From an uncultured Tissierellaceae bacterium (lineage in GTDB: Bacteria; Bacillota; Clostridia; Tissierellales; Tissierellaceae), in assembly GCA_964637035.1 (NCBI GenBank), contig CAZWTU010000001.1, positions 57,938-121,937 of the forward strand: a stretch of 64,000 nt of DNA, in the 5' to 3' direction. The position numbers and the translations under genes were made by a program. Below are positions 59,028 to 64,000 of the stretch, piece after piece (positions within the stretch are counted from its first letter, which is position 1; the number at the start of each line of letters is the position of its first letter). The notes beneath the pieces are model-generated. The model was not told the DNA's origin. It saw nothing but the letters and a program-made list of their open reading frames with translations, and ran no database searches.

Positions 59028-59041
59028 AGAACTAGAGTTCG
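59028..59041 (+). promoter_or_regulatory. LexA (Cheo/SOS) box
   Basis: AGAACTAGAGTTCG matches the Gram-positive GAAC-N4-GTTC consensus (CGAACNNNNGTTCG). It lies just downstream of the recA -10. Confidence 0.75.
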
Positions 59042-59082: not shown

Positions 59083-60132
59083 ATGACTGAAAACATTGAA
59101 AAGAAAAAAGCTTTAGACTTGGCAATAGGTCAAATAGAAAAACAATTCGGTAAAGGATCTATAATGCGTTTAGGGGGAGACGCAAAATTAGATTTGGATG
59201 TAATACCAACGGGGTCCATAAATCTTGATATTGCCCTAGGTATTGGCGGAATACCCAGAGGAAGAGTTATTGAAATATATGGTCCAGAATCATCGGGAAA
59301 AACAACTGTTGCCCTTCATATGATTGCTGAGGCACAAAAATTAGGGGGCATAGCAGCTTTTATAGATGCAGAACATGCTCTAGATCCAGGTTATGCAAAA
59401 AAATTAGGTGTAGATATTGAAAATCTAGTAATTTCACAACCTGATACTGGAGAACAAGCTCTAGAAATTACTGAATCTTTAGTAAGAAGTGGTGCTGTAG
59501 ACATTATTGTTGTTGACTCTGTAGCAGCCCTTGTTCCTAAGGCTGAAATAGAAGGTGAAATGGGAGATAGTCATATGGGCCTTCAAGCACGACTTATGTC
59601 CCAAGCTTTAAGAAAGCTTGCTGGTACTATAAACAAATCAATGAGTACAGTGGTTTTTATCAATCAACTTAGGGAAAAAATCGGGGTCATGTTTGGTAGT
59701 CCAGAAACTACTTCTGGGGGAAGAGCCTTAAAGTTTTATGCCAGTGTTAGATTGGATATTAGGCGAATTGAAACCATCAAACAAGGTGATGAAATGCTTG
59801 GTAATAGAACTCGAGTTAAAGTAGTAAAAAACAAAGTCGCACCTCCTTTTAAACAAGCCGAATTCGATATAATGTATGGTATGGGTATTTCCAAAGAAGG
59901 TAACATTCTAGATGCCGGCGTCACCGCAGATATTGTTGATAAGGCTGGTTCATGGTATAGCTATGGTGACCATAGATTAGGACAAGGAAGGGAAAACTCA
60001 AAGAATTTTTTAATAGAAAATCCAGAAATAGCGTTAGAAATAGAAAATAAAATTCGAATAAAATATAATTTGATAGATGACAACAGTGAATCTAAAGAGG
60101 TTGTTGAAGATACTAAAAATAAAGATAAATAA
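59083..60132 (+). CDS. recA: Recombinase RecA
   Basis: [23 protein letters not shown], Walker [10 protein letters not shown] and Walker [11 protein letters not shown]. Confidence 0.98.
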
Positions 60133-60138
60133 TAAATT

Positions 60139-60165
60139 AAACCTCCTAAAGGAGGTTTTGTTTTT
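60139..60165 (+). terminator. Rho-independent terminator after recA
   Basis: AAACCTCC (60139-60146) / GGAGGTTT (60151-60158), TAAA loop, then TGTTTTT. The next gene's SD starts at 60166. Confidence 0.78.
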
Positions 60166-60176
60166 GAGGTGATACT

Positions 60177-61157
60177 TTGAAATTACTCTATTTTACAGAC
60201 ACCCATATTCGGGGTACTAATCCTAAAAATAGGAAAGACTCCTTTATTGATACTGTAGAAAATAAACTAATAGAAATTATTAATATTATTGAAAAAGACA
60301 ATATAGATTTTGTACTACATGGAGGAGATTTGTTTGATAGACCTGATGTATCTATTTCTATTGTAAGCAGATTTGCTAAAATTCTATCTAAAATCAAAGT
60401 TCCATTTTATTTAGTAAGTGGTAATCATGATATATACGGTCATAACCCTGAAACAATCCACAGAACAATGCTAGGATTATTAGATGTGTTAGGAGTTATT
60501 AGTATTATAAATAATAAAAAGATTATTCTTGAAAAAAACAATATAAAGGTACAACTTTCGGGTCAGCCTTATATATACGACATTGATAGCAAAGAAAATT
60601 TAAAATATTACTTATTAAATGAAAAAAATCCAGACGTGAACTATAATATTCACATGATTCATGGAATGTTATTGGATAGGCCATTTATCAAAGGAATCCC
60701 TTATACCCTAGTTGATGATATTAAAGATACAGCGGCAGATATAACTTTATCTGGTCATTACCATAGTGGCTTTAAAACCATGGAGATTAATGGTAAATAT
60801 TTTATCAATCCTGGTAGCATGGTAAGGATTACCAATAGTTTAAGGGAAATAGAAAGAAAACCTAAGGTTATGATAATTAATTTAAAAGAAGCTGTTTGTA
60901 TTGAATCAATATATTTAGATAGTGCATATTCAGGTGAAGATGTTTTAGATAGAAAAGAGATAGAAAATAATTTATTCAAAAACGAGCGAATGCTGGAGTT
61001 CAAACAAACTATTAATGCAGCTATGAATTATGAAAAAATGGATATAAATGAAGTTTTAATGCAGGTCTCAAATGCAGACGGTGTAGAGGATCAGGTTATA
61101 GAAGAGGCACTTAGAAGAATTGCCAAGGTTCAAATGGAATCTTTTAGAGGTGGATAA
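60177..61157 (+). CDS. Mre11/SbcD-like calcineurin-fold metallophosphoesterase
   Basis: TTG start 5 nt after GAGGTG. All five phosphoesterase motifs occur in order: FTDTH, GGDLFD, SGNHD, HMIHG, SGHYH. 326 aa. Confidence 0.8.
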   Translation: MKLLYFTDTHIRGTNPKNRKDSFIDTVENKLIEIINIIEKDNIDFVLHGGDLFDRPDVSISIVSRFAKILSKIKVPFYLVSGNHDIYGHNPETIHRTMLGLLDVLGVISIINNKKIILEKNNIKVQLSGQPYIYDIDSKENLKYYLLNEKNPDVNYNIHMIHGMLLDRPFIKGIPYTLVDDIKDTAADITLSGHYHSGFKTMEINGKYFINPGSMVRITNSLREIERKPKVMIINLKEAVCIESIYLDSAYSGEDVLDRKEIENNLFKNERMLEFKQTINAAMNYEKMDINEVLMQVSNADGVEDQVIEEALRRIAKVQMESFRGG

Positions 61158-62600
61158 ATGAAATATATTAAAAGAGTTATATTAGAAAATTTTCAATCTC
61201 ATAAATATACGGTTGTTGATTTAGATAGTAGATTAAATGTTATTGTCGGTCCTTCTGACAGTGGAAAAACTGCCATTTTAAGAGGCATTAAATGGGCCCT
61301 TTATAATGAACCTTCTGGAGATTATTTTATTAGAGAAGGTGAATCTGAATGTGCCGTAACTATTATCTTTAGTGATGACACAAAGATAAAGAGATATAGG
61401 AGTAAAAGCAAAAATACCTATTATTTATATGATGAACTTGACACAGAACTAAAGTTTGAAGGATTTGGCACAAATGTACCAGATGAAATATTAGAAGCAA
61501 CTGGCATTAAAAAGATTTTACTAGACAAAAGTGTATCAAAAACAATCAATATTAGTGATCAATTAGAAGGTGCATTTCTACTTTCAGAAAAAGGTTCAAT
61601 AAGAGCTAGCTCTATAGGCTACCTAGTAGGCGTTGATATTATTGATGATGCCTTAAAAGAAACTTTAAGGGAAAGCAGAAGTTTGTCAAACAACAAGAGA
61701 ATTATTGATGATAACATTATAAAACTAGAGAAAGATTTATCTAAATATGATTATTTAGATGCATTAAGCAAAAAAGTGAGTAAATTAGAAAATATATTTA
61801 ATAAAATTGATTATAAAGAAAAACAATTAGTTAAATATAAAGAAATATTATTAAAAACTAGTGAAATAAAAGCTGAAACTCTTAAGCTAAATATTTATCT
61901 TAAAAAGCTTAGAAATTTCCATGATGCAGAACATTTATTCAGTAATATAGAATTAAAACTTATAAAATATAAACAATTAAACAAACAAAATTTATCTCTA
62001 AAAAAGACCAAAGTAAATATGCAAGTAAATAATAAAATCGTTACAAGCCTTGCAAATATAGATGTAGTTAAAGAAAATATTGATAAAATTTCTATATTGT
62101 TGGTTAAAAAATATAAATTAAATATTATAAATAAGAACATTAAATTAACTTCCAATAATATGAAAATTTACAAAAATATTATTAATAAGTTAATAAATTT
62201 AGATATGGTAGAAAATAATATAGAAAAAATTAACAATAACAATATTCAATTAAAAGTTTTATCCCAAATCAAAAAGAAAATAATTAATGTAAAACATAGT
62301 TTATCAATTGGTAGTGTATATATAAGTAAATTAAATGAAATAGATAGGATTTCAGATCAATCTTTAAAAATTGAAAAAAAATTAAATACTATTAACCATC
62401 TTATAAAATTATCATCTAATTTCTATGCTAATAGAAAAGCAATGGCTAAATTAAATAATGAAATTATAAATTATAAAAACAAATTTGATATTTTATCAAG
62501 TGAATATAAGGATATCCTTTTGAAGGAAGGTACTTGTCCCTTATGTTTTAGTGATATTGATAGTGAAAAAGCAAACCATATTATCGATCAATACAAGTAG
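61158..62600 (+). CDS. Rad50/SbcC-like ATPase, N-terminal half only (N-lobe + long coiled coil + C-terminal CxxC)
   Basis: The ATG abuts the upstream TAA. ILENFQSH and Walker A GPSDSGKT (61248-61271). About 300 aa of N/K/I/L-rich heptad-like sequence. CPLC at 62535-62546, 17 aa before the stop. No Walker B or signature motif. Confidence 0.7.
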   Translation: MKYIKRVILENFQSHKYTVVDLDSRLNVIVGPSDSGKTAILRGIKWALYNEPSGDYFIREGESECAVTIIFSDDTKIKRYRSKSKNTYYLYDELDTELKFEGFGTNVPDEILEATGIKKILLDKSVSKTINISDQLEGAFLLSEKGSIRASSIGYLVGVDIIDDALKETLRESRSLSNNKRIIDDNIIKLEKDLSKYDYLDALSKKVSKLENIFNKIDYKEKQLVKYKEILLKTSEIKAETLKLNIYLKKLRNFHDAEHLFSNIELKLIKYKQLNKQNLSLKKTKVNMQVNNKIVTSLANIDVVKENIDKISILLVKKYKLNIINKNIKLTSNNMKIYKNIINKLINLDMVENNIEKINNNNIQLKVLSQIKKKIINVKHSLSIGSVYISKLNEIDRISDQSLKIEKKLNTINHLIKLSSNFYANRKAMAKLNNEIINYKNKFDILSSEYKDILLKEGTCPLCFSDIDSEKANHIIDQYK

Positions 62601-62611
62601 GAGGTATAATT

Positions 62612-62860
62612 ATGGATTATGAGAAAGAATTAAGTACTTTAAAACAGAATTTAGAACAAGTTAAAAACCTAAAGTATAAGGCAGAGGCTCGATTAGAGCA
62701 GTTAAATCATCAAGAAGAAGAAATAAATAAGGAATTAAAGGAATTAGGGGTAAGGCCTGAGGATTTGGAAAGTGAAATTGATAAATTAACTTTAGAAATA
62801 GAAAGACTATTTGTAGAAGCTAATAGTTTAATTCCAAAAGATTTACTAGAAAAGAAGTGA
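62612..62860 (+). CDS. 82-aa predicted coiled-coil protein
   Basis: AGGAGG SD 7 nt upstream of the ATG. E/K/L-rich heptad-like sequence (LSTLKQNLEQVKNLKYKAEARLEQLNHQEEEINKELKEL). In a different frame from both neighbours. Confidence 0.5.
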   Translation: MDYEKELSTLKQNLEQVKNLKYKAEARLEQLNHQEEEINKELKELGVRPEDLESEIDKLTLEIERLFVEANSLIPKDLLEKK

Positions 62861-62864
62861 TATA

Positions 62865-63518
62865 ATGATTAATAATTCTAAAGAATTAAAAGGCAATTTA
62901 AACGAGCTAAAAGAATTTTTAGCTCGTGAAACTGGTAAGAGAGATAAAACTAAAGAACAATTGCAAGCTTTTAAGGAAAATGCTAAACAAAAAGAAGATA
63001 AAGTAGAATTACTAGGTAAAGTTGGTATATTATTGCAAAGAACTTCTGAGTATGCAAGAAGTCAAGCCAAAATCCAAGTTGAATCTTTGGTTACCAAGTG
63101 CTTGCAATATATATTTGAAACTAATATTGAGTTTTTAATTGAAATTGACGAGCAAAGAGGTAAATCAAATGCTGAATTCTACGTAATAAATGAATTAGAA
63201 GATATACTAATTAAAACCAAACCTGAATTGTCAAGGGGTGGTGGAGTAGTTGACATTGTTTCTCTAGCATTACGAATTGCATTTCTTCAAACACATAAGC
63301 CTAAAATTCAAGGGCCTTTAATATTAGATGAGCCTGGTAAACATGTAAGCGATGAATATATTTTCAATGTTGCTGAATTTTTAAAGCAAACTTCTGAACT
63401 TTTTAATAGACAAATTATTATGGTTACTCATAACAATCATTTAGCTGCAATTGGAAGTAATTCTTATAAAGTCGATTTAAAAGGTTCCATTACTTCTCTT
63501 ACTAAGATAACATACTAA
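62865..63518 (+). CDS. Rad50/SbcC-like ATPase, C-terminal half only (short coiled coil + ABC C-lobe)
   Basis: ATG 4 nt after the upstream TGA. Signature-like ELSRGGG, Walker B PLILDEPG, H-loop IIMVTHN. No Walker A. Confidence 0.7.
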   Translation: MINNSKELKGNLNELKEFLARETGKRDKTKEQLQAFKENAKQKEDKVELLGKVGILLQRTSEYARSQAKIQVESLVTKCLQYIFETNIEFLIEIDEQRGKSNAEFYVINELEDILIKTKPELSRGGGVVDIVSLALRIAFLQTHKPKIQGPLILDEPGKHVSDEYIFNVAEFLKQTSELFNRQIIMVTHNNHLAAIGSNSYKVDLKGSITSLTKITY

Positions 63519-63525
63519 TAATATC

Positions 63526-63554
63526 TTGACATTACCTTTTAAAAGTAATAAAAT
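63526..63554 (+). promoter_or_regulatory. Sigma-A-type promoter for rny
   Basis: -35 TTGACA (63526-63531), 17-nt spacer, -10 TAAAAT (63549-63554). About 130-nt leader. Confidence 0.6.
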
Positions 63555-63690
63555 TGAATTGTATGTATCTATAAATGTTTATTGTTTTGATTTAATAAAC
63601 TTATATTTTTATATAAAAAGGTTTATTGTTAATAATAATAAAAATATGTTATGGAATTTGAAAACTTAATACAAATGGAGGTGTTTAATC

Positions 63691-64000
63691 ATTCAAAATT
63701 TACTAATTAGTGCAATTCTTGGAGCAATTATTGGAATTATTGCTGGATATTTTATAAGAAAAAATATCGGTGAAGGTAAGATAAATAATGCTGAAGAAGT
63801 AGCTAAAAAATTAATTAATGATGCAGAAAGAGATGCAGAAGCTAATAAAAAAGCTCTTGTAGTAGAAGCAAAAGAAGAAATGCTTAGATTGAAAAATGAA
63901 GTGGAAAAAGAAAATCGTGAAAGAAGATCAGAAATTCAGAAACTTGAAAAACGCATTATCACCAAAGAAGAAAATATTGAAAGAAAATCTGAAAACTTAG
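63691..64000 (+). CDS. rny: Ribonuclease Y, 5' part (runs off window); apparent non-canonical ATT/ATC start
   Basis: The frame from 63691 gives (I)QNLLISAILGAIIGIIAGYFIRKNIGEGKINNAEEVAKKLINDAERDAEANKKALVVEAKEEMLRLKNEVEKENRERRSEIQKLEKRI. This matches the TM plus coiled-coil N-terminus of B. subtilis RNase Y as I recall it. GGAGGTG at 63677-63683. No ATG/GTG/TTG between the in-frame stop at 63667 and the TM helix. Confidence 0.85.
   Translation, partial: MQNLLISAILGAIIGIIAGYFIRKNIGEGKINNAEEVAKKLINDAERDAEANKKALVVEAKEEMLRLKNEVEKENRERRSEIQKLEKRIITKEENIERKSENL

Follow-up and report, generated by a model that had tools for sequence, protein, structure and literature searches.

A 64,000-nucleotide (nt) stretch of the genome of an uncultured Tissierellaceae bacterium (the window; positions count from its first letter) carries four tightly packed genes, here called A, B, C and D, in the space between recA and rny (Table 1). 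A encodes an Mre11/SbcD-type metallophosphoesterase, B a Rad50-type N-lobe whose long helical arm ends shortly after a zinc-hook-type motif, C a small helical protein and D a Rad50-type C-lobe. The A and B genes abut with a gap of 0 nt, 11 nt separate B from C and 4 nt separate C from D, and each of A, B, C and D has its own Shine-Dalgarno (SD) sequence. A first-pass annotation made from the DNA sequence had described these four open reading frames (ORFs) on the + strand, with the recA terminator and the rny promoter as their boundaries; all four ORFs, a terminator-like hairpin and an rny promoter-like site were found there. The comparisons reported below point to a natural hook-split Rad50 operon beside recA, with C as a small extra subunit, as a new arrangement.

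Table 1. Positions of genes, motifs and regulatory sites in the recA-rny region of the window (aa, amino acids; AF2, AlphaFold2).
Feature	Position	Strand	Evidence
LexA (Cheo) box GAACTAGAGTTC upstream of recA	59029..59040	+	Only perfect GAACNNNNGTTC in the 64-kb window
recA (349 aa)	59083..60132	+	ORF and translation; 71-86% identical in all loci; always directly before A, or followed by recX and then A
Terminator-like hairpin AAACCTCC-loop-GGAGGTTT with T-run, in the recA-A spacer	60139..60165	+	Hairpin 60139-60158; SD of A, GAGGTG (60166-60171), directly after
A, Mre11/SbcD-type metallophosphoesterase, 326 aa, TTG start	60177..61157	+	Pfam Metallophos, PHROG, profile against PDB
B, Rad50-type N-lobe (aa 1-163) and ~290 helical residues (164-457), 480 aa	61158..62600	+	AAA_23 and Rad50 matches, AF2 model
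Walker A / P-loop of B, G31-PSDSGK-T38	61248..61271	+	G31, S33, D34, G36 and K37 invariant (41 homologues)
CPLC zinc-hook-type motif of B, C460-C463	62535..62546	+	C460, P461 and C463 invariant
C, conserved helix-turn-helix subunit, 82 aa (helix 3-45, turn G46/P49, helix 49-73)	62612..62860	+	AF2 model, conservation, phrog_18563
D, Rad50-type C-lobe, 217 aa, with N-terminal coiled-coil stub of ~60 aa	62865..63518	+	Profile against Rad50 C-lobes, phrog_15167
Signature-type motif of D, G125-G126-G127	63237..63245	+	Nearly invariant; aligned to S-G-G of Rad50 (3aux)
Walker B of D, D155-E156	63327..63332	+	Invariant (51 diverse homologues)
H-loop histidine H189 of D	63429..63431	+	Invariant
rny promoter-like site TTGACA-17-TAAAAT, downstream operon boundary	63526..63554	+	11/12 matches; rny N-terminus next in every locus with enough flank

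The split is conserved and vertically inherited

Relatives were sampled by a scan with one genome per species, which gave 60 loci from Tissierellaceae, Sporanaerobacter, Anaerosalibacter, Soehngenia, Gudongella, Tepidimicrobium, Anaeromonas, Senegalia, Anaerosphaera and Urinicoccus and from the Clostridia Caloramator and Fonticella. The region was completely covered in 57 of these loci, and motif conservation was judged over 57-60 orthologous loci. The order recA-(recX)-A-B-C-D-rny was observed in every locus with enough flank. The proteins were of about 326, 480, 82 and 218 aa in 57/57 complete loci, with a truncated A in one locus (L027) as the single exception, and the genes were separated by 0-21 nt or overlapped slightly (4-23 nt). 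No relative carried an uninterrupted ORF spanning B, C and D; the three-ORF layout, ORF C included, was conserved in all 57 complete loci. The relative frames of B, C and D differed between loci, the B-to-C and C-to-D offsets taking all values, which excludes both a recent frameshift and programmed recoding. The ratio of non-synonymous to synonymous substitution rates (dN/dS), computed only on genome pairs with unsaturated dS, was 0.05-0.09 for A, 0.16-0.24 for B, 0.02-0.10 for C and 0.05-0.09 for D. Collectively, these comparisons indicate that the split is real, ancient and functional, and the preference of the first-pass annotation for a functional split over recent fragmentation was borne out by the separate genes, the low dN/dS and the individual SDs and starts.

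Three abutting ORFs in different frames do look superficially frameshifted, but a recently fragmented gene, pseudogene or sequencing artefact derived from one Rad50/SbcC-like ORF has next to no credibility, given the same three genes at the same lengths in several families with differing frames and gaps, the more than 1,200 stand-alone D clusters, 749 B homologues and 409 C homologues, the dN/dS of 0.02-0.24 and an own SD and start for every gene. Programmed recoding (frameshifting, read-through or bypassing) that would fuse B, C and D into one Rad50-length polypeptide is just as hard to credit: the gaps are very short (0-17 nt) or the genes overlap by 4-23 nt, and bypassing is described for split phage genes such as phage topoisomerase gene 60 (bioRxiv 10.1101/2022.08.31.505936), but neither the stops nor the gap lengths are conserved among loci with their freely varying offsets, B, C and D each have their own SD and ATG, and whole genes intervene between B and C in phages.

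The identity of A-D to the window proteins co-varied with that of cinA (rho 0.82-0.88) and of rny (rho 0.72-0.80), and the G+C content of the module, overall and at third codon positions (GC3), matched that of the neighbouring genes. Together, this co-variation and the matching composition show the module to be a vertically inherited resident of the core region. Irregular copies were seen in two metagenome-assembled genomes (MAGs): in L027 (4297-4977) A is truncated to 226 aa and a 304-nt gap precedes B, and in L035 (1862-3081) cinA is spread over two frames. Either may be an assembly error or a real pseudogene.

B and D carry the N-lobe and C-lobe of a Rad50-type ATPase

B matched Pfam AAA_23 (E 6e-17; also SMC_N), archaeal Rad50 PRK03918 (E 6e-16) and, over its full length, phrog_16465 (E 1e-61). 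Its best solved relatives, both by sequence search and by Foldseek, were N-terminal fragments of P. furiosus Rad50. NFQSH was conserved, and Walker A (G31..G36-K37), the Q-loop (Q135) and C460-P461-x-C463 were invariant, in agreement with the SMC/Rad50-type N-lobe that had been recognised from NFQSH and Walker A. The AF2 model of B has helices at 164-297, 301-345, 348-392 and 395-457, followed by the CPxC turn and a short helix; in this B-only model residues 123-173, including the invariant Q-loop, are disordered without D. The hook lies at residue 460, near the position of the P. furiosus Rad50 hook (residue 444), which suggests that B equals a full N-terminal half of Rad50. The earlier description of B as stopping 17 aa after a CPLC hook was right about the position, and the CPxC is invariant, although the match to Pfam Rad50_zn_hook is weak (15 bits against a cut-off of 24.3, E 0.023).

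D as a single sequence gave no match in the PDB, and a profile was needed. A profile of D with 50 diverse homologues matched Rad50 C-lobes with the coiled-coil stub included (3aux, 3.6e-13; 3qkr_B, 6e-13; 1ii8_B, 2e-12), and phrog_15167 matched D over its full length (E 3e-60). One search returned 1,538 D homologues. The profile search placed D among the ABC/Rad50 C-lobes, so this part of the first-pass reading stood, as did its Walker B and H-loop; the LSRGGG stretch it had called signature-like is a variant in which the signature serine is replaced.

The catalytic motifs of the head are divided between the two chains. B has Walker A and the Q-loop, D has the signature-type GGG, Walker B and the H-loop, and all are invariant or nearly so. 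The set expected of an ABC-type head (Walker A, Q-loop, signature, Walker B, D-loop and H-loop) is present in B and D jointly, with the Ser-to-Gly variant signature. As had been proposed, B is without Walker B and the signature and D is without Walker A, and this division is itself conserved. A single polypeptide with one long antiparallel intramolecular coiled coil was not found, the B, C and D genes being separate in all loci examined. Rare single-chain representatives, P0239 (368 aa) and P0250 (325 aa), join a B-type N-lobe to a D-type C-lobe with almost no coil between them. The P0239 N-lobe is 41% identical to B (E 3e-41), that of P0250 matches at E 2e-29, and the D-type C-lobe matches at E 4e-27. 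P0239 (L068 958-3025, a metagenome contig) follows an A homologue and lies directly upstream of addB-addA. These natural, coil-less fusions directly support both lobes belonging to one head, and a Rad50-like head would be formed here by two chains, B and D.

A is an Mre11/SbcD-type phosphoesterase

A matched Pfam Metallophos PF00149 well above its cut-off (55.4 bits against 21.5, E 1.4e-14) and the PHROG 'SbcD-like subunit' (E 3e-17). The best PDB matches of the A family profile were Mre11 of P. furiosus and M. jannaschii and SbcD of T. maritima (E 9e-8 to 1e-4), in the N-terminal half only. The complete calcineurin/Mre11 motif series that had been read from the sequence is present and conserved across loci. 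In 32 sequences the metal-ligand motifs D8/H10, G50-D51, G82-N83-H84-D85, H162 and H194/H196 were invariant or nearly so, N83 being kept in at least 90%, and all five motifs of the calcineurin-like phosphoesterase fold (D-x-H, G-D, G-N-H-D/E, H and G-H-x-H) occur in A. Mre11/SbcD nucleases have a capping domain and a C-terminal helix-loop-helix with which they bind the coiled-coil base of Rad50. In A the phosphoesterase domain is followed by only ~90 residues, 52% conserved and helical to the eye, for which no profile match was obtained.

C is conserved like the catalytic domains

The mean pairwise identity of C among loci was 63%, close to that of the A phosphoesterase domain (63%), the B N-lobe (64%) and the D lobe (68%). 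The coil parts reached only 19-25% (distal helices of B) and 31% (first 45 residues of D). AF2 modelling of C with 51 homologues gave a helix at residues 3-45, a turn at the invariant G46/P49 and a second helix at 49-73, with a predicted local distance difference test (pLDDT) value of 85 and a predicted template modelling (pTM) score of 0.47. P49, I56, L59 and P75 were invariant. C matched phrog_18563 end to end, and a profile search returned 409 stand-alone homologues, of which the best 120 were 81-99 aa long (about 82) with no fusion among these 120. In phage modules genes may intervene between B and C, yet C directly precedes D.

Comparisons of C with other proteins were negative. No PDB structure matched the C model in Foldseek, and a search of PDB sequences with the C profile returned nothing beyond chance matches, to generic coiled coils and to the G-V-x-P-D turn of designed PPR repeats. 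Only non-specific coiled-coil matches were obtained in Pfam, NCBIfam and PADLOC, and hhalign detected no similarity between C and either A or B. The conservation of C, so far above that of the coil, fits poorly with a simple coiled-coil strand, and the predicted hairpin likewise suggests that C is no mere coiled-coil filler. The first-pass annotation had taken C for an 82-aa coiled coil with its own SD in a different frame and for one piece of a three-piece Rad50. The ORF, its size, its SD and its conserved place beside B and D all hold. A single straight coiled-coil segment is at odds with the predicted helical hairpin, and a mere piece of the coil fits poorly with that hairpin and with an identity of 63% against 19-25%.

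Linkage to recA and expression

In most related loci a LexA box equivalent to that of the window precedes the recA start by 38-71 nt, and no box was found between recA and A. The SD of A follows the recA-A hairpin directly, leaving no room for a promoter. The hairpin stem ACCTCC/GGAGGT is conserved in sequence in ~45 loci, with variable loops; its 5' arm (ACCTCC) is anti-SD-like and its 3' arm (GGAGGT) SD-like. One possible function is that of a leaky terminator or attenuator, by which the hairpin would adjust the ratio of recA to ABCD. It is absent from L051, L052, L054, L057 and L058, in which recA and A either overlap by 4 nt or are separated by 18, 12 or 3 nt. In the Caloramator and Fonticella loci (L053 3618-4292, L056 3632-4285, also L055), recX (Pfam RecX_HTH1-3) stands between recA and A, the recX stop overlaps the A start (ATGA), and cinA is absent upstream. 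Co-transcription is certain only in loci where recA or recX overlaps or abuts A. On the sequence features, the simplest reading is that recA-(recX)-ABCD would form an SOS-inducible transcription unit with an attenuating terminator.

The wider surroundings are those of the core genome. pgsA, cinA and recA stand upstream of A and rny stands downstream of D, within a co-directional core-gene block (polC...pnp...ftsK...cinA-recA-module-rny) that contains no defence island. The window has a G+C content of 29.6%, and all 65 of its ORFs of at least 80 aa lie on the + strand. Its gene sizes and order resemble a typical Firmicute core block, and its nearest relatives were Tissierellaceae. Neither tRNA genes nor Rfam elements were found in the 64-kb window.

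The rny gene of the window has an unusual start. Its frame contains no ATG, GTG or TTG between the in-frame stop at 63667-63669 and the conserved N-terminus, and the leader (63655-63693) carries an SD, GGAGGTG (63677-63683), and then ATC ATT (63688-63693), which suggests AUU or AUC as the start codon. In L001, L016, L022, L024, L036 and L053 rny is likewise without a usual start, and other relatives have ATG, TTG or GTG near the same position. A conserved motif, TGGAAYTTGAAAAnTWAAT, was observed just upstream of the rny SD.

Copies on phages and plasmids

An exhaustive HMMER search with D returned 2,855 representatives at 50% identity (E<=1e-3), with 1,208 at E<=1e-10, and almost all of the best 150 were 200-240 aa long. 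B homologues numbered 749, the best 120 being of ~480 aa. The family is spread over Tissierellia, some Clostridia, Bacillus phages, phage-like plasmids and jumbo-phage-like contigs. In the Bacillus prophage phBC6A51 the genes run BC1852 ('SbcC', 518 aa), BC1853, BC1854 (C), BC1855 (D) and then BC1857 ('SbcD'). Jumbo phage 0305phi8-36 encodes an A-B fusion (gp8), C (gp7) and D (gp5), and C. baratii pCBJ likewise carries an A-B fusion, C and D. The same split was found in phage vB_BboS-125, in a linear B. velezensis plasmid and on metagenomic contigs. Gene orders on these mobile elements vary (B-C-D-x-A; AB-C-D), and in phages the neighbours of the module include genes for helicase, primase and resolvase. 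Every B-type chain examined, fused to A or not and phage versions included, ends 10-25 aa after a single CPxC, and a C homologue with the G-x-x-P turn was present in all variants examined but one, L065, in which no C homologue was detected. Yoshida et al. (PMC3175470) describe the Mre11/Rad50 fusion of 0305phi8-36 as one that 'lacks one P-loop segment'; judged by sequence, the lobe reported missing is gp5.

Additional genes were observed in some of the mobile copies. In vB_BboS-125 a gene of the homing-endonuclease type with HNH_3 and AP2 domains (gp33; L063 5143-5715) lies exactly between the B and C homologues, and at the same B|C junction phBC6A51 has an unrelated 100-aa ORF (phrog_24690). 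By analogy, the HNH+AP2 gene suggests a possible clue to the origin of the split in phages. Jumbo-phage-type modules have an extra protein of ~235 aa without a family match before D, after the A-B fusion or C (L064 5195-5911, which is 0305phi8-36 gp6, 238 aa; L065 2350-3051, 233 aa).

The public names of the parts are generic or wrong ("AAA family ATPase", "hypothetical protein", "ATPase", "ParA"). D homologues are labelled 'chromosome partitioning protein ParA' or 'chromosome segregation ATPase' (L070 4983-5618; NC_004820 BC1855; plasmid hits H22 and H23), and these labels are likely mis-annotations of a Rad50-type C-lobe.

Comparison with known systems

The module resembles Mre11-Rad50/SbcCD, including phage T4 gp46/gp47, in that a calcineurin-type nuclease gene adjoins the gene or genes of an ABC ATPase whose N-lobe and C-lobe go with a long helical arm and a hook-type CxxC motif. 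A, B and D find their best sequence and structure matches in Mre11 and Rad50 proteins from P. furiosus, M. jannaschii and T. maritima, and both systems occur in DNA repair and phage recombination contexts. Rad50/SbcC is one polypeptide with the hook mid-chain, at the apex of the coiled coil, whereas here B-type chains stop 10-25 aa past the hook and the C-lobe is separate with ~60 residues of coil. A fourth conserved protein, the 82-aa hairpin C, is present, the returning strand is less than half of the outgoing one, and Ser has become Gly in the signature. A is short for an SbcD/Mre11 (326 aa) and falls below the family cut-offs. With the single chain and the full-length antiparallel arm both missing and an extra subunit added, the module is better described as a variant of Mre11-Rad50 than as an ordinary member.

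Laboratory constructs offer a second likeness. In the two-chain Rad50 crystallography constructs (1F2T/1F2U, 1II8, 3QKR) separate N and C lobes form an active head, and the B N-lobe and D match their A and B chains. Those constructs are truncations without arm or hook; here the division is natural, the N-terminal chain carries arm and hook, and C is added.

Among Firmicutes, the double-strand-break repair pair SbcE-SbcF (YhaN-YhaO) of B. subtilis is alike as an operon of a metallophosphoesterase and an SMC-like ATPase with the nuclease gene first. YhaN is a single 963-aa chain and the yhaO/yhaN operon does not adjoin recA, and in both respects it differs from the module; the two were compared by chain and gene layout. 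No NCBIfam model named for YhaN or YhaO was among the matches at E<=1. The yhaO/yhaN (SbcF/SbcE) operon is under LexA/SOS control in Bacillus (PMC3896406, citing Krishnamurthy 2010), which backs the place given to YhaO-YhaN in the B. subtilis SOS regulon by the first-pass annotation.

Lamassu (LmuA-LmuB-LmuC) is also SbcCD-derived, and its small helical separate subunit LmuC is related to the SbcD C-terminal domain and contacts the SMC-like LmuB (PMC12663957); B matches the LmuB model. LmuB is a single chain, and the module differs further in its core-genome site by recA. A Lamassu system combines LmuB with an LmuA effector (Cap4, Mrr, Sir2 or others) and, as a rule, with LmuC. Membership of Lamassu was rejected, as A and C gave no LmuA or LmuC match in PADLOC and the neighbours are recA and rny.

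Phage 'genes in pieces' are alike in their adjacent fragments and in the HNH+AP2 gene at the B|C junction of vB_BboS-125. In Aeromonas phage Aeh1, nrdA is split by mobE, and the fragments made by the homing endonuclease reassemble non-covalently so that the essential enzyme works in pieces (PMC3045599, PMC2988022). The present split is different in being fixed across a very large family that includes chromosomes without an endonuclease gene at the junction; a homing-endonuclease origin is here a proposal by analogy.

No published description of a split Rad50 or SbcC was found in the literature searched, which took in few subscription-journal papers, and no curated NCBIfam or Pfam model reached its threshold as Rad50, SbcC or SbcD for any of A-D. 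For phBC6A51 and 0305phi8-36 the literature yielded annotations and the paper on the Mre11/Rad50 fusion, and nothing else. With the generic public names, this argues that the module is not already a well-annotated family with a known role.

A proposed four-subunit machine

We consider it probable that A, B, C and D together make up a single four-subunit machine of the Mre11-Rad50/SbcCD type, which processes DNA ends and hairpins. The physical assembly, zinc binding, nuclease substrates, SOS induction and arm geometry in what follows are all what we infer. The ATPase head would be assembled in trans, B providing Walker A and the Q-loop and D the signature-type GGG, Walker B, the D-loop region and the H-loop. 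B would carry the long helical arm ending in the CPxC zinc hook, where a shared Zn2+ presumably joins two complexes or arms, and the N-terminal helix of D would pair antiparallel with the base of this arm. C would be an obligate fourth subunit that either continues the returning strand along the proximal B arm or acts as an adaptor on arm or head, and A would be a Mn2+-dependent nuclease docking on the head. If the operon is transcribed with LexA-controlled recA, or by read-through from it, the complex would appear alongside RecA after DNA damage, where it may prepare blocked or hairpin-capped ends for recombinational repair by opening or trimming them. The SOS parallel with yhaO/yhaN, the addAB-linked variant and the recombination-module context in phages all point to end or hairpin processing for recombinational repair, and an SOS-linked DNA-end or hairpin-processing complex is the most likely role suggested by the sequences.

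Several observations weigh against this four-subunit machine. The scores of A, B and D lie far below curated thresholds: A scores 38.8 against 77.65 for TIGR00619 (sbcd), 45 against 500 for Mre11_Sulfo and 15 against 450 for PRK10966 in NCBIfam, the best score of B is 57.5 bits against a PRK03918 cut-off of 700, and D reaches 26 against 1000 for Rad50_Sulf. Where Rad50 has S-G-G, the D signature has lost its canonical serine to glycine. C (~68 helical residues) and the D stub (~60) together cover at most ~130 of the 294 helical residues of B, which is less than half, the length of B does not scale with that of C plus D across variants, and C is conserved far above the coil with which it would pair. 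A terminator-like hairpin parts recA from A in most loci and A has its own promoter-like site in three, so that SOS co-induction is something we infer. The frequent carriage of the module by phages and phage-like plasmids would also be compatible with a role centred on mobile DNA.

The geometry of the arm may be met in several ways. A returning strand of ~130 residues is about the length of the first helix of B (134). The D stub and C may cover only the proximal part of the arm, with B 301-457 forming an apical bundle or pairing with a second B under the hook. Other possible solutions are that B folds back on itself or that C binds elsewhere as an adaptor. A bolder proposal, which we regard as doubtful, is that the module represents a distinct architectural class. 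Its B arm would be only half-paired, the distal ~150 residues (helices of 45, 45 and 63 aa) forming an apical bundle or zipping up with another B chain that shares the zinc hook, to give a constitutively bridged dimer; C would be a regulatory or adaptor subunit coupling the state of the arm to the B:D head or to A, and cells would produce the complex together with RecA when it is needed. If this is true, hook-head signalling would work without a continuous two-stranded coiled coil, which would challenge models of Rad50/SMC allostery and provide a natural, pre-separated system for testing them.

Among the alternatives, the one that survives best, though we think it unlikely, is a domesticated phage recombination or replication module whose job in the host is other than general double-strand break (DSB) repair, with the recA adjacency as an old insertion site. 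Such a job could be the handling of hairpins or palindromes at replication termination, or of DNA in competence and transformation, and the competence-damage gene cinA does lie upstream. The family occurs widely, and in several gene orders, on Bacillus phages, jumbo-phage-like contigs and linear or large plasmids, which fits this proposal, and the HNH+AP2 gene at the B|C junction of vB_BboS-125 suggests a phage-born split comparable to the nrdA fission (PMC3045599); by that analogy, a phage origin of the split is plausible. The proposal largely overlaps the four-subunit repair machine, however, since SbcCD of E. coli, too, acts on palindromes and convergent forks (PMC12663957), and the LexA box, the recA/recX coupling and the addAB adjacency of the single-chain variant point to recombinational repair.

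Anti-phage or anti-plasmid defence by a Rad50-like or SMC-like (Lamassu-like) system that senses foreign DNA ends and destroys the DNA is very unlikely. B matches the PADLOC LmuB model (E 1.8e-15), D weakly matches the mad3, LmuB (1.4e-5) and GajA models, the module is frequent on phages and plasmids, and Lamassu shares the SbcCD descent and a separate small helical subunit, LmuC (PMC12663957). Yet there is no LmuA-type effector and no LmuC match, and the sole PADLOC match of A is weak (8.7e-5). The surroundings are co-directional core genes, not those of a defence island; the module has been inherited strictly vertically along with its flanks; in some lineages the translation of A is coupled to that of recA or recX; and the phage copies sit in replication/recombination modules. 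It is this core-genome, vertically inherited and recA-coupled context that makes defence unlikely. The first-pass annotation had left open DSB processing or nucleic-acid defence beside recA; the place beside recA holds, and of the two roles defence is very unlikely on the grounds just given.

Implications

In the universal Mre11-Rad50/SbcCD machine, the way in which the hook and the long coiled coils signal to the ATPase head is still debated. In this family the Rad50 chain is naturally interrupted right after the hook, the returning strand is shorter and a small conserved subunit has been added, all under strong purifying selection. It is a tractable natural system for asking which covalent connections of Rad50 matter, with C as a candidate new subunit, in a complex that is physically linked to recA and recX and probably under LexA control. 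Earlier reports of Mre11-Rad50 fusions 'lacking one P-loop segment' (PMC3175470) can be explained by a separate lobe whose gene lies two genes downstream, and thousands of genes that now carry generic or wrong labels could receive a proper annotation.

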